NCBI GenBank assembly: GCA_051747585.1
Contig: JBNJGH010000003.1
Span: forward strand, 1,980-65,979
Length of the DNA stretch: 64,000 bases
Source of the DNA: Candidatus Rifleibacteriota bacterium
GTDB taxonomy: Bacteria; Muiribacteriota; Ozemobacteria; Ozemobacterales; Ozemobacteraceae
Reading direction: 5' to 3'
Part shown: positions 8,895 to 56,870 of the stretch, piece by piece
Position numbering within the stretch: position 1 is the stretch's first letter
Layout: each line of letters opens with the position of its first letter
The notes under the pieces: generated by a model
Database searches by the model: none
Seen by the model: only the letters and a program-made list of their open reading frames with translations
Told to the model about the DNA's origin: nothing
Position numbers and translations under genes: made by a program

Positions 8895-9020
8895 AATCTT
8901 CTCCTCTTGGCTTGCTTTACTTATTTTACCACCATTATTTTTAAAAGTTTTTATTTTTTTAAGAGTTAGCTATGGATTAATTCTCGGTAAATCATTATTC
9001 TCTGGGTTTCAAACGTTCTG

Positions 9021-9110
9021 GTTTATTTCTTTGTGGCTTTGAGGCTTGGTGTGAAGCAAATTCTTTTCTGAAACAAGTTGTTAGTCGCTGACCCAGAATT
9101 GCTGGTAGCT
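9021..9110. repeat. Partial copy (R2) of the right-end module of the repeat family
   Basis: ttatttctttgtggctttgaggcttggtgtgaag...gttgttagtcgctgacccagaattgctgg matches the tail of R3 at 36636-36718. Confidence 0.45.
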
Positions 9111-36262: not shown

Positions 36263-36361
36263 AACTTTTTGTTTTATTGGAATGCTGATAATACTGTTTA
36301 TTGATTATTTTGTCATCAACCCTTTCGCTCAACTGAAGAATACTGAACAAAAAACCAGATA

Positions 36362-36718
36362 TTCTCGGTCAATTATTATCAGCTGGTTACCAAAATTTTT
36401 GGTTTTACTTCTTTTTGTCAAATATAGAATTTAAACCACCGAGATCACCGAGGCCACCGAGTGGATTTTTTTATCTTTTTCAGCCGTGGATTGTCCGGGG
36501 GACAATCAGCCGGCGACTTTTTGTCGCCGGCTTTCCCGGCATAAGCAAGCTCTAAGAAAAACACTGGTGCTTTTCTTAGAGCTTGCTTATGCCGGGAACA
36601 AGGCTGAAAAAGATTCTCTGTGCTGCTCTGTGAACTCTGTGGTTATTTTCTTTGTGGCTTTGAGGCTTAGTGTGAGAAATTTTCTTTTTCTTAAACGAGT
36701 TGATGGTAGCTGACCGAG
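36362..36718. repeat. Full copy (R3) of the modular palindromic repeat
   Basis: The core at 36465-36602 is bounded by the 11-bp inverted repeats ctttttcagcc / ggctgaaaaag. Hairpin H1 is at 36479-36497, H2 at 36498-36522, and H3 at 36525-36586 with a 26-bp perfect stem. The flanks are about 90% identical to R4. Confidence 0.8.
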
Positions 36719-36801
36719 AATTGCTGACAAAAAACTGTTGGTTGTTATTAATCTGTCGGTCTATGGTATAATAAGAAAAAATCTTTTAGGAGGCAGGCTG
36801 A

Positions 36802-46852: not shown

Positions 46853-46892
46853 TTAGAACAATCAGCAATTCTCAGTGAACTGTTATTAGCTG

Positions 46893-47195
46893 GTTTTTAA
46901 AATCTTTGGTTTTATTTCTTTCTGTCAAATATAGAATTTAAACCACCGAGATCACTGAGGCCACCGAGTGGATTGTTTTATCTTTTTCAGCCTTGTTCCC
47001 GGCAGCAGCAAGCCCTCAGAAAAACATGAGTGCTTTTCTGAGGGCTTGCTGCTGCCGGGAAAGCCGGGCGGTGAAACCGCCGGCTGATTGTCCCCAGGAC
47101 AATCAGCCGGCTGAAAAAGATGCTCTGTGATTCTCTGAGAGCTCTGTGGTTAATTTCTTTGCGGCTTTGAGGCTTGGTGGTGTGAGGAATCTTAA
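46893..47195. repeat. Full copy (R4) of the modular palindromic repeat
   Basis: Core at 46982-47119, bounded by the same 11-bp inverted repeats. H3 is at 46998-47059 and carries the different but fully compensated stem cccggcagcagcaagccctcag. The H1/H2 block lies on the opposite side of H3 relative to R3. Confidence 0.8.
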
Positions 47196-47199
47196 ATAA

Positions 47200-51920: not shown

Positions 51921-51968
51921 CCAATTTTAGATCAGTAATTCCCGGCCAAAGAAAAATCGACTGCTTTT

Positions 51969-52515
51969 AAGAATGAAAATGCATCACACTAAGCCTCAGA
52001 GCCACGGCGTTCACAAAGAAGAAATAAAATAAAAAAAGTGCATCTCGCAAAGATCGCCAGGTTCGCTAAGTCCGCAACGAAGAAATATTTCAACAAGCTT
52101 CAGACTTTTTCATTACAAATTCTTAGTATATTTTTAACCACAGAGCCCGCAGAGCTGCACAGAGAATCTTTTCAGCCATTGTTCCGTTTGTCAACAAGGG
52201 TTCAGAAAAACACTGGTGTTTTTCTGAACCCTTGCTGACAAACGGAAAGCCGGACGGTGAAACCGCCGGCTGATTGTCCCATGGACAATCAAGGGCAGAA
52301 AAAGAAAAAAACAACTCGGTGACCTCAGTGATCTCTGTGGTTTAAATTCTTTGCGCTCTTTGCGGCTTGGCGAGATGTTTTTTTCAGGATTCGACAACGA
52401 TGACGGGCAGGATGCCCTAATGCTGGGGCACCTGAGGATGCAGTGCGCCCCAATGCAACGATTACGATAACCGCTTCGCTGAGCACGAGCACGATTTTTC
52501 TTTTGTGTGAGGCAA
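51969..52515. repeat. Extended copy (R5) of the modular repeat, about 550 bp, in reverse orientation relative to R3 and R4
   Basis: Same end modules as R3/R4 plus an extra conserved insert of about 120 bp. Core at 52167-52304, with H3 at 52182-52247 (stem ttccgtttgtcaacaagggttcag). The tail shares the gacgggcaggatgccctaatgctggggcac and cgattacgataaccgcttcgctgagcacgagcacga modules with R7 and R1. Confidence 0.8.
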
Positions 52516-53523
52516 TTATTTTTTGCGGGTTTTTTTGGTTTTTCGCTTTGCTTTATATTTGCCGGTTGGTTCTGAGACTTTGTTCTTTTCTGCCAGCTGT
52601 TCGATTTGTTTAATAGAAAGCTCGGTAATTTCACTTATTTCTTCAAAAGACTTGCCCCTGGCAATCATTTTAAGAGCAATTTTCTCGCATCTTAATTGAT
52701 CACCCTTTTCTATACCTTCTTCAAGGCCTTCTTTGCGGCCTTCTTTGCGGCCTTCTTTGCGGCCTTCTTCAAGGCCCTCGAATTTGCCGACACCATAAGT
52801 TGAGTCAACCATGCTGGCCTGGTAACTGAGATCGGCAAGGTAAGCTTCGTATTCCTGGCGCTCTTTATCGCTCATTTTTAAAATGTCGAGCTTTTTTTGC
52901 GCCTTTTTTAAGCCCTTAGCCTTGAAATTGTCTTTGATTTTTCCGTTTTTGAGAAAATATATCCATTCATCGAGGGTATTTTTTGCCACATCGTCAAAGT
53001 TTTTGACCTTGATTACATACATTTCAGGAAAAAGCTGTGAAGGATGGTCTTTTTTGAGGCATTTTCGCTGCAGCGGACTCAGGGTAAGCTCTTCGTTTTT
53101 ATGAACGCCCTTAAAAGTGGTAGTGCCATGATAGATATAATCGCTACCCTTGCCGAGATCGAAATAAACTATGGCTACAGAAATAACCTTAACTATTTCA
53201 GAGTATTTCTGACCCTCTTTAAAGTGCTCGGTTATGGCTTTGGCAACCCCGAACAAAACCCGCTGCAAAAAGTCTATTTCCCTTTGATATTGAACCTCAA
53301 TTAAAATTATTTCGCCTTTGTGGGTTTTGCATTTTAAATCGAGCCGGCTGAATTTATCATGTGATGTTTCTTTGTTGCTTTCGCTTTCAAGAATCTCGAC
53401 AATGGTGATTTTATTGCCAAGCAACTCAGTCAGAAAACCTTCTAAAATATCAAAATTGGCTTTACTGCGTAAAAGCCGTTTCATCGCCCAGTCAAAACTG
53501 ACAAGTTTTCGAGTTGAAGCCAT
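52516..53523 (-). CDS. Rpn-family recombination-promoting nuclease / putative transposase (PD-(D/E)XK, Transposase_31 / YhgA-like)
   Basis: N-terminal FDWAMKRLL ... LIEVQYQ PD-(D/E)XK core. The C-terminal short-period repeat EGRKEGRKEGRKEGLEEGIEKG is characteristic of Rpn proteins. Confidence 0.8.
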   Translation of the reverse strand: MASTRKLVSFDWAMKRLLRSKANFDILEGFLTELLGNKITIVEILESESNKETSHDKFSRLDLKCKTHKGEIILIEVQYQREIDFLQRVLFGVAKAITEHFKEGQKYSEIVKVISVAIVYFDLGKGSDYIYHGTTTFKGVHKNEELTLSPLQRKCLKKDHPSQLFPEMYVIKVKNFDDVAKNTLDEWIYFLKNGKIKDNFKAKGLKKAQKKLDILKMSDKERQEYEAYLADLSYQASMVDSTYGVGKFEGLEEGRKEGRKEGRKEGLEEGIEKGDQLRCEKIALKMIARGKSFEEISEITELSIKQIEQLAEKNKVSEPTGKYKAKRKTKKTRKK

Positions 53524-53640
53524 TGTTTACCTCTGAATGCAGTGTTCTTGACTCTAATTTTACGCTGATGCAATTTAAATAGCAAATTTACCTTAAATTC
53601 CCAGCAACATGCGTGTTAACTGCTATCAGCTGCTCTCAAG

Positions 53641-54210
53641 AAAGAATATGCATCACGCTAAGCCTCAGAGCCACGAGGTTCACAAAGAAGAAATCAAATA
53701 AAAAAAGTGCATCTCGCAAAGATCGCCAGGTTCGCTAAGTCCGCAATAAAGAAATGTTTCAACAAGCTTCGGATTTTTTCATTTCAAATTCATAGTAGAT
53801 TATAAACCACAGAGTCCTCAAAGGTGCACAGAGGATCTTTTTCAGCCTTGGATTGTCCTTTGGACAATCAGCCGGCGGTTTCACCGTCCGGCTTTCCCTT
53901 CATTAATAACAGGGTAGAAAAGCACCAGTGTTTTTCTACCCTGTTATTAATGAAGGGAACAATGGCTGAAAAAGATTAAGAAATCAGCTCTGTGATCTCG
54001 GTGATCTCTGTGGTTTAAATTCTTAGCGCTCTTTGCGGCTTGGCGAGATGTTTTTTTTCAGGATTCGACAACGATGACGGGCAGGATGCCCTAATGCTGG
54101 GGCGCCTGAGGATGCACTATGCCCCACGATTACGATGACGATTACCGCTTCGCTGAGCACGAGCACGAGCACGAGTTTTCTTTTTGCCTTAGCGGCTTTG
54201 GGTGAGGCAA
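53641..54210. repeat. Extended copy (R6) of the modular repeat; a direct repeat of R5 on the other side of the Rpn gene
   Basis: About 95% identical to R5 outside the core. Core at 53837-53974, with H1 at 53851-53869, H2 at 53870-53893 and H3 at 53896-53957. Its stem (cccttcattaataacagggtag) is unrelated to R5's, and its loop is inverted relative to R3. Confidence 0.8.
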
Positions 54211-54214
54211 TTAA

Positions 54215-56605: not shown

Positions 56606-56794
56606 AGTTTTTTATGATTCAATTTTATCTTTATTTGCCGGCTGAAACAACAGGTAAAATCATCGCGATTATCATAAGTTAAGAGATTGCTTCGTCGGCT
56701 TCGGCCAGATCAGCCGATCTGACCTACTCTCCTCGCAATGACATATTGCGCGGTCCCTGAGCGAAGTCGAAGGGACCAGGTAACTGTTCTTTGG

Positions 56795-56870
56795 TGGTTT
56801 TGACGGGCAGGATGCCCTAATACTGGGGCACATGAGGATACAAAGTGCCCCAGTGCGACTAACGCTCAAC
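56795..56870. repeat. Partial copy (R7) of the gacgggcaggatgccctaat...ctggggcac...gtgccccag module
   Basis: Matches R5 at 52390-52460 and R6 at 54070-54130. Confidence 0.5.

Follow-up and report, generated by a model that had tools for sequence, protein, structure and literature searches.

An rpn nuclease gene between two copies of a nested-palindrome repeat in Candidatus Rifleibacteriota

Within a 64-kb stretch of DNA from a Candidatus Rifleibacteriota bacterium (contig JBNJGH010000003.1, positions 1,980 to 65,979; henceforth the window, whose first letter is position 1), a gene for an Rpn-family PD-(D/E)XK nuclease (rpn) lies between two copies, R5 and R6, of a large palindromic repeat (R), and the resulting R-Rpn-R block separates a gene for a HEAT-repeat protein from one for a TPR-transglutaminase protein. 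We found that the block is an insertion, that R also occurs independently of Rpn, that the two flanking copies evolve in concert, and that Rpn-R-Rpn junctions exist in a related population. On balance we favor the explanation that R spreads alone as a family resembling miniature inverted-repeat transposable elements (MITEs), that rpn is a toxin-antitoxin gene of the defence type, and that the R-Rpn-R arrangement was made, and is kept uniform, by homologous recombination. We infer how, and in which direction, this recombination proceeded, and we likewise infer that the gene acts as a toxin-antitoxin system in defence. To our knowledge, such a juxtaposition of R and Rpn has not been described, but known processes of recombination offer the simplest explanation for it.

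The R-Rpn-R block and its counterparts in related genomes

The boundaries of R5 and R6 (Table 1) were set after removal of a 74-nt leader that is common to other Rpn genes. When compared in direct orientation by blastn, R5 and R6 match over ~549 nt with 79% identity and contain colinear blocks of 88-91% identity, with a start-to-start spacing of 1669-1674 nt. The middle ~137 nt, which hold three hairpins, are reversed between the two copies (inverted repeat I1), so R5 and R6 are direct in their flanks only. The first-pass annotation of this DNA had described two same-orientation copies of ~550 bp on either side of the gene; this description was correct for the bracketing and for the flanks, but not for the inverted center. 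As single-stranded DNA, R5 and R6 each fold into one long nested hairpin, with minimum free energies of -115 and -130 kcal/mol and z-scores against dinucleotide shuffles of -9.6 and -10.7, respectively. The open reading frames (ORFs) that are called mechanically inside them (52191-52634, 52038-52314, and 53824-53979; up to 147 aa) lie across the palindromes on either strand; they are shadow frames, not genes, and R is without a credible ORF.

An empty form of the site, which the first-pass annotation had suggested looking for, was found in a related species whose TPR protein is 64% identical (L028). Here, the gap between the HEAT and TPR genes measures 105 bp and contains neither Rpn nor R, and the gene order from MutL to NAD kinase is the same as in the window. 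Thus, the 2.3-kb R-Rpn-R block is an insertion in the lineage of the window.

A filled form of the site is present in a closer relative, a population sampled in metagenomes of the Joint Genome Institute (JGI), in which Rpn is 96% and the TPR protein 89% identical to those of the window. R-Rpn-R occurs there at the same place, in independent assemblies from other samples. The R copies of this population are 92-98% identical mutually and 72-85% identical to the window copies, the variants being mosaics of one another. Module X1 is common to R5 and R6 and missing from both JGI copies, while a CATTGCGAGG...GAAGCAATC module is common to the upstream and downstream JGI copies and missing from R5 and R6. 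Since flanking copies resemble each other more than they resemble their positional orthologues, they undergo concerted evolution, that is, ongoing recombination between direct repeats.

These comparisons also bear on the trivial explanation that the block is a repeat-induced misjoin in a metagenome-assembled genome (MAG). R and Rpn are indeed frequent points of contig breakage or branching in the related population, as such an explanation would have it, but because R5 and R6 diverge by 10-20% and carry an inversion relative to each other, and because the independent JGI assemblies agree on R-Rpn-R with the same neighbors, an assembly artefact is extremely improbable.

Contigs of the related population further revealed R between consecutive Rpn genes. 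On one contig (L005), R is followed by Rpn (P0001), and a further R and the leader then precede a second Rpn gene that is 17.7% divergent; three others (L001, L006, and L008) open with the 3' end of Rpn, followed by R-leader-Rpn. On a 54-kb contig (L011), R and the leader precede a variant of a 316-aa Rpn paralogue, a gene that is usually without R.

Other joins were seen in the same set of contigs. A left flank composed of a cation ATPase gene, a 62-aa ORF, and R (L021:3262-4207, L011:1659-2670, and L003:5000-6000) is joined to three different partners, being followed by the variant 316-aa Rpn paralogue, by Rpn P0001, or directly by the TPR gene. These joins are either real rearrangements mediated by R or Rpn or assembly chimeras, and as the two are inseparable the joins offer weak support at most for a second R-Rpn locus or a deletion allele. 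The 62-aa ORF beside the ATPase gene, located in repeat-like DNA, is probably spurious. Two alleles of the 316-aa paralogue (L011:2671-3310 and L012:2671-3310) are ~5.6% different over their first 640 nt and then identical, and their upstream regions are entirely different, a pattern suggestive of recombination or gene conversion among rpn paralogues or, alternatively, of a chimeric contig.

The R family and its occurrence without Rpn

R is dispersed over the window. Full cores of R are present at four of ~47 gene junctions, in addition to fragments, all of them intergenic, and R-family modules were detected in 7 of the 17 intergenic regions of at least 40 nt. No Rpn gene neighbors R3, R4, a short copy, or a further copy at L003:888-1186. 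At the R4 site, the related strain (TPR protein 89% identical) has adjacent stop codons (TAA/TTA) with 0 bp between them and no Rpn (L022:7328-7333), and another species has 108 unrelated bp. R was therefore gained or lost at this site without Rpn, possibly with a 6-7-bp target duplication (ATAATTA), for which there is a single filled/empty pair. R resembles a MITE in being multi-copy, non-coding, intergenic, and strongly folding, and in showing presence/absence polymorphism at R4.

Rpn genes likewise occur without R. Neither P0003 nor P0004 (85% identity; located between EF-G and IDH) is accompanied by R, nor is the 316-aa paralogue in its common context (TrmO-82 bp-Rpn-50 bp-EF-G), nor are P0007 (79%) and P0006 (82%); the flanks of all these genes are short and repeat-free. 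The first-pass annotation had proposed to judge the association by whether Rpn copies are generally flanked by the repeat, and these genes show that they are not. Because R occurs and inserts without Rpn, the Rpn gene most likely hitch-hikes on R rather than acting upon it.

R measures 350-620 nt and is built from three nested layers: an outer element, arms, and a core. The outer element has terminal inverted repeats of ~17 nt (consensus TCAGCAATTCTCGGTCA) that are clearest in R3 and in the 133-nt short form, while one end differs or is degenerate in R4, R5, and R6. The arms form a pair made of three CAC(A/C)GAG motifs, and an A/T-rich spacer in one arm renders the pair asymmetric. The core is edged by perfect 13-nt inverted repeats (ATCTTTTTCAGCC and GGCTGAAAAAGAT) and contains hairpin A (32-bp stem), hairpin B (GCCGGnCGG), and hairpin C (GATTGTCC). 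Extra outer modules, X1, X2, X3, and a GAGCAC microsatellite, are found in R5 and R6. The short form, judged by the layers it has kept, implies that an inner element was nested into an outer one or that an internal deletion may have occurred. A separate hairpin module with a variable center, TGTCATTGCGAGGA ... GACGAAGCAATCTC, lies between genes, upstream of the HEAT gene (56684-56745), and also within the outer part of R copies from the related strain (L001:115-190 and L002:5215-5290). Several small palindromic modules thus make up the intergenic space in mosaic fashion.

Searches of Rfam with the whole window at gathering thresholds, and with the locus at E-values up to 5, returned only generic hairpin (miRNA-type) noise; R therefore belongs to no known RNA family. 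Scans of R for intrinsic terminators and promoters yielded nothing above chance and no intrinsic-terminator pattern. The exact core pattern GATTGTCCNNNGGACAATCAGCCGGCG has 0 matches in GTDB representative genomes and 0 in JGI metagenome contigs, the R-bearing JGI contigs having been reached through protein look-ups and not through exact core patterns. A second core pattern, GGCTGAAAAAGATN{13,19}CTCTGTGGTT, is without matches in GTDB genomes and in IMG/VR (0 each), and its one hit, inside a pilT gene (L036), is due to chance. R appears to be an undescribed, lineage-specific, non-coding family of MITE-like nested-palindrome repeats, a new family of a known kind.

Its closest analogs among small repeats are the Correia/NEMIS, ERIC, BOX, RUP, and BIME mosaic elements, which are also non-coding, intergenic, multi-copy, hairpin-forming, and modular or nested, show presence/absence polymorphism, in some cases have terminal inverted repeats, and give rise to short derivatives. 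R is nonetheless far larger than these (350-620 nt) and has three nested layers, an asymmetric three-hairpin core that is found in both orientations, and a hypervariable yet perfectly complementary stem; no cognate transposase was identified for it in the window that was scanned.

With the asymmetric arms as reference, the cores fall into two orientation classes, one comprising R3, R5, all copies of the related population, L003a, and L011, and the other R4 and R6. Hairpin A of R6 shares its sequence class with hairpin A of the copy at the orthologous position in the related strain, but is inverted, indicating that the core flipped in place after the strains had split. By contrast with such a flip between strains, orientation is uniform across the 11 core-bearing JGI contigs of the related population, which argues against a fast phase switch. 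An asymmetric segment that lies between inverted repeats and occurs in both orientations is also typical of invertons and of the flip/flop hairpins of parvoviruses such as adeno-associated virus (AAV). Unlike invertons and flip/flop hairpins, however, R shows one orientation per locus within the population, no recombinase was found within the window and no invertase nearby, and R is chromosomal and dispersed, whereas parvovirus/AAV terminal repeats sit at replicon ends.

An alignment of six distinct cores (A2) revealed that 19 of 61 base pairs are changed on both sides with pairing kept, and that there are no one-sided or G-U changes and almost no broken pairs among them. The 32-bp stem of hairpin A is hypervariable between copies and always perfectly complementary. 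Strict Watson-Crick compensation of this kind points to maintenance at the level of DNA, through a hairpin or cruciform or through arm-to-arm copying, and not to RNA structure. For the stems of hairpin A in particular, the pattern suggests DNA-level homogenisation from arm to arm. An RNA-structure reading of the R hairpins was considered and rejected on the same counts.

The covariation is also relevant to the notion, which we hold to be very doubtful, that R is a cis-acting insulator, terminator, mRNA stabiliser, or promoter context retained on both sides of a toxic rpn gene. REP and BIME elements play such regulatory roles in enterobacteria, and R is extremely structured and occupies the space between co-oriented genes. 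Yet R has neither an intrinsic-terminator pattern nor an Rfam match, the strictly Watson-Crick covariation devoid of G-U pairs speaks against selection at the RNA level, the orientation of the core differs between copies, and other rpn genes manage without R.

The rpn gene and its product

The 335-aa product of rpn matches Pfam PDDEXK_2 (PF12784; E 1.2e-30, 107 bits, cutoff 27.4) and the NCBIfam model of the Rpn family (TIGR01784; E 3.3e-29, 102.5 bits, cutoff 52.1; residues 10-310), both profiles exceeding their curated cutoffs. The residues D62, E76, and Q78 (RLDLK...IEVQ) are unchanged in 13 of 13 Rpn homologues with 52-98% identity (alignment A3) and, by analogy with RpnA, would correspond to the catalytic PD-(D/E)XK positions (D ... 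E-x-Q/K); in RpnA, Q84A and further mutants of proposed catalytic residues have been described (PMC5350276). The C-terminal part carries LEEGRKEGRKEGRKEGLEEG, encoded by 12-nt tandem repeats, and the first-pass annotation of an Rpn/YhgA-like PD-(D/E)XK nuclease with EGRK repeats is thus borne out. The protein has >7500 homologues, the nearest in Candidatus Riflebacteria, and for both Rpn and the TPR-transglutaminase protein the nearest relatives are encoded in MAGs of Candidatus Riflebacteria/Rifleibacteriota, with identity reaching 100% for one protein from an NCBI MAG; the Rpn paralogues P0002, P0015, and P0020 are also from NCBI MAGs. A PDB sequence search with Rpn gave nothing informative, and PADLOC-DB 2.0 contains no model matching it.

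The gene has the architecture of the RpnL/RpnS toxin-antitoxin systems, in which a small antitoxin is made from an internal start and a hypervariable number of 4-aa repeats sets partner specificity (PMC10400941). Met238 (motif QASM) is unchanged in 13 of 13 homologues and lies 14 residues ahead of the variable 4-aa repeats, while published RpnS proteins have these repeats beginning 8-20 residues past the internal Met (PMC10400941). The number of EG(R/I/L)K-type repeats differs among the 13 homologues (A3), and the window gene has exactly one 12-nt EGRK unit more than its 96%-identical orthologue P0001 (alignment A1, columns 1748-1759). It is on the invariant Met238 and the variable EGRK number that the likeness to RpnL/RpnS rests, and an RpnS is predicted to be translated separately from Met238. 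From its family membership, the window gene is predicted to be an RpnL/RpnS toxin-antitoxin or defence gene and not a transposase.

This gene also resembles RpnL/RpnS antiphage genes (PMC5350276, PMC10400941) in its Pfam/NCBIfam family, its D/E/Q core, its invariant internal Met, the differing number of 4-aa repeats between near-identical orthologues, its patchy presence as a single gene, and the several paralogues per genome; the likeness extends to toxicity, antitoxin activity, and defence only as predictions from sequence. One difference stands out: the published survey describes rpn genes without identifiable flanking repeats (Zhong et al., 2023; PMC10400941), whereas here a dispersed element flanks the gene as 0.6-kb direct repeats. 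The first-pass annotation had called the association undescribed, and the searchable literature indeed has no such flanking.

The 74-nt leader ahead of the Rpn start codon also precedes the paralogue P0007, which has no R, and must therefore be the gene's own. It contains a sigma-70-like match (TTGCTA-17-TAAAAT, 53585-53557, minus strand), which is a consensus match only.

Apart from Rpn, no transposase, RAYT, integrase, recombinase, or invertase is encoded in the window, based on a Pfam scan of 36 ORFs (33 of at least 120 aa between 1 and 40.5 kb, and three others) and, for the remaining window ORFs, on precomputed Pfam lists of homologous genes in related loci. The other window ORFs are housekeeping or envelope genes, and the earlier remark that Rpn is the only transposase-like gene in the window, with no RAYT present, holds.

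This singularity invites the question of whether Rpn acts on R. The first-pass annotation had raised the possibility that Rpn recognises or cleaves the R hairpins, in which case RpnL would be a structure-specific nuclease that nicks or resolves hairpins or cruciforms of R, with R-Rpn-R as the autonomous and solo R as the non-autonomous form, comparable to RAYT and REPIN. We know of no autonomous transposase that consists of a PD-(D/E)XK nuclease only, which counts against such a pairing. Four related Rpn genes are without R, and R occurs without Rpn. Moreover, the E. coli protein RpnA shows little or no sequence specificity when it cuts DNA (Kingston et al., 2017; PMC5350276), and rpn genes are held to be neither transposases nor autonomous, with no evidence of transposing (Zhong et al., 2023; PMC10400941). 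A transposase could also be encoded elsewhere in the genome, beyond the 64-kb window. Thus, the proposed recognition or cleavage of R by Rpn is unsupported, and we judge a functional pairing improbable in spite of several points that agree with it: no nuclease- or transposase-like gene besides Rpn was found in the window, R is mobile and no mobilising enzyme for it was identified, the strict Watson-Crick palindromes and the flipping core fit a DNA-hairpin intermediate, and several Rpn-R junctions exist in the related population. Its strongest form, in which RpnL would cut or resolve R hairpins and thereby drive both the core flip and the spread of R, so that R-Rpn-R would be the autonomous member of a novel class of hairpin elements, is if anything a little more doubtful still.

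The REP/REPIN-RAYT system invoked in this comparison likewise combines palindromic intergenic repeats within one lineage with a domesticated single-copy enzyme gene lying between repeats of its own. REPs measure 20-40 nt and REPINs, which are inverted doublets, ~100 nt, as opposed to the 350-620 nt and 32-bp stems of R, and the gene flanked by REPINs encodes a RAYT (Y1 HUH) transposase and not a PD-(D/E)XK protein. Most related Rpn genes here, in addition, have no repeat.

Origin of the block and neighboring features

How could rpn have come to lie between two R copies? In the explanation that we favor, R would populate the intergenic regions of the Riflebacteria lineage without any need of Rpn. 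A circle, or else a donor segment, consisting of R, the leader, and rpn would then integrate in Campbell fashion into a resident R; unequal crossing-over between R copies would be an alternative origin. Once in place, two direct repeats of 0.6 kb would open the way to tandem duplication, deletion, or relocation of the rpn unit, with R serving as portable homology and rpn as the hitch-hiker. Zhong et al. (2023; PMC10400941) proposed that rpn arrays arise via tandem direct duplication and that hitch-hiking is probable, and an R-borne recombination model fits this proposal.

Passenger genes between direct copies of a dispersed repeat are familiar from IS26 translocatable units, from IS/rrn tandem amplification, and from Campbell integration, and as in IS26-type units the repeats evolve in concert and a tandem arrangement of the unit is in evidence. 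Unlike the bounding repeats of IS26-type units, R encodes no transposase, so that movement must use host recombination or another enzyme. The idea of a composite mobile cassette, which was the other suggestion of the first-pass annotation, therefore survives in part. The insertion relative to L028, the concerted flanks, and the presence of R between consecutive Rpn genes agree with it, but the bounding R copies encode no transposase, as those of a composite transposon would, and mobilisation of R by Rpn finds no support.

Rpn might instead have arrived alone between the HEAT and TPR genes, the two R elements, members of a subfamily active at the time and with a preference for AT-rich TAA/TTA past stop codons, having inserted later and separately on either side. 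R4, R5, and R6 do all adjoin TAA stops with a common terminus (...GTGAGG(C)AAT-TA), R is dense with four full copies per 64 kb, and hairpin A of R5 belongs to another sequence class than that of R6. We nevertheless regard such a coincidence as unlikely, given that R5 and R6 are mutual best matches and have all outer modules (X1, X2, X3, and the GAGCAC repeat) in common, alike in order and orientation, that the two copies of the related strain likewise match, with a different module set, and that recombination between copies is required anyway.

Several observations weigh against an origin by R-borne recombination. Hairpin A differs between R5 and R6 at ~40% of its stem positions, which is more than predicted from a simple duplication with 10% flank divergence. 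The nearest empty site (L028) belongs to a distant relative, such that the exact borders of the block and a target duplication are not definable. The contigs with Rpn-R junctions are short-read metagenome assemblies of a repeated unit, in which copy number and some joins are uncertain, and L003, L011, L021, and L005 are possibly chimeric graph walks. Neither a HEAT-R-TPR allele with a single R and no Rpn nor a free circle was observed. Finally, 2-3 of 6 Rpn gene borders in R-bearing genomes have R, against ~4% of other borders, which leaves room for a specific affinity between R and Rpn.

The features of the window discussed here are listed in Table 1. A gene for an N6-adenine DNA methyltransferase lies beyond the HEAT gene; it has no adjoining restriction gene, and its synteny is kept even in the species without the Rpn insertion, placing it outside the inserted block.

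Table 1. Positions of the rpn gene, the R copies, and neighboring features in the window (a dot in the strand column marks features without strand)
Feature	Position	Strand	Remarks
Short member of the R family, 133 nt	8973..9105	.	outer element only, without arms or core; matches R3 at 36361-36417 and 36640-36726
R3, full copy	36354..36728	.	17-nt terminal inverted repeats; divergent intergenic region; no Rpn nearby
R3 core	36473..36614	.	three hairpins, 13-nt inverted repeats
R4, full copy	46853..47199	.	347 bp between convergent DsbD and NIF3 stop codons; no Rpn nearby
R4 core	46980..47121	.	three hairpins, 13-nt inverted repeats
R5, repeat copy downstream of Rpn	~51931..52515	.	adjoins Rpn stop codon; other end 10 nt from TPR-transglutaminase start
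R5 core	52167..52305	.	hairpins A-B-C on plus strand; inverted repeats I1, I2
rpnL, Rpn-family PD-(D/E)XK nuclease gene, 335 aa	52516..53523	-	profile matches PF12784, TIGR01784
Putative internal rpnS (antitoxin) frame, 98 aa, from Met238	52516..52812	-	suggested by invariant Met and repeat distance
12-nt tandem repeats coding the (EGRK)n tract	52703..52791	-	repeat family D2, period 12
Rpn leader with promoter-like site	53524..53597	-	gene-owned, outside repeat
R6, repeat copy upstream of Rpn	53598..54214	.	terminates at stop codon of HEAT-repeat gene
R6 core	53835..53976	.	hairpins C-B-A on plus strand within 13-nt inverted repeats; inverted relative to R5 and JGI positional orthologue
HEAT-repeat protein, 796 aa	54215..56605	-	upstream neighbor of Rpn; long acidic low-complexity middle, E/K/D-rich
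Solo outer module X1 (GACGGGCAGGATGCCC...)	56801..56859	.	repeat D4; otherwise in R5 and R6
N6-adenine DNA methyltransferase, 555 aa	57340..59007	-	N6_Mtase/Eco57I/TaqI_C domains, PADLOC MTase_II

The accepted view of Rpn protein function is unaltered by these findings. If a pairing of RpnL with R were true, it would represent a PD-(D/E)XK counterpart of RAYT/REPIN, and Rpn proteins would gain a cognate DNA element. The less ordinary features of the system are the core flip and the strictly Watson-Crick, hypervariable stems, and a mechanism at the level of the DNA hairpin may merit study. For the movement of rpn genes, Zhong et al. proposed recombination or hitch-hiking without a worked example. 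The HEAT-R-Rpn-R-TPR locus, with its empty site, its concerted flanks, and the tandem Rpn-R-Rpn junctions of a sister population, is a concrete case through which recombination on portable homology becomes directly testable.

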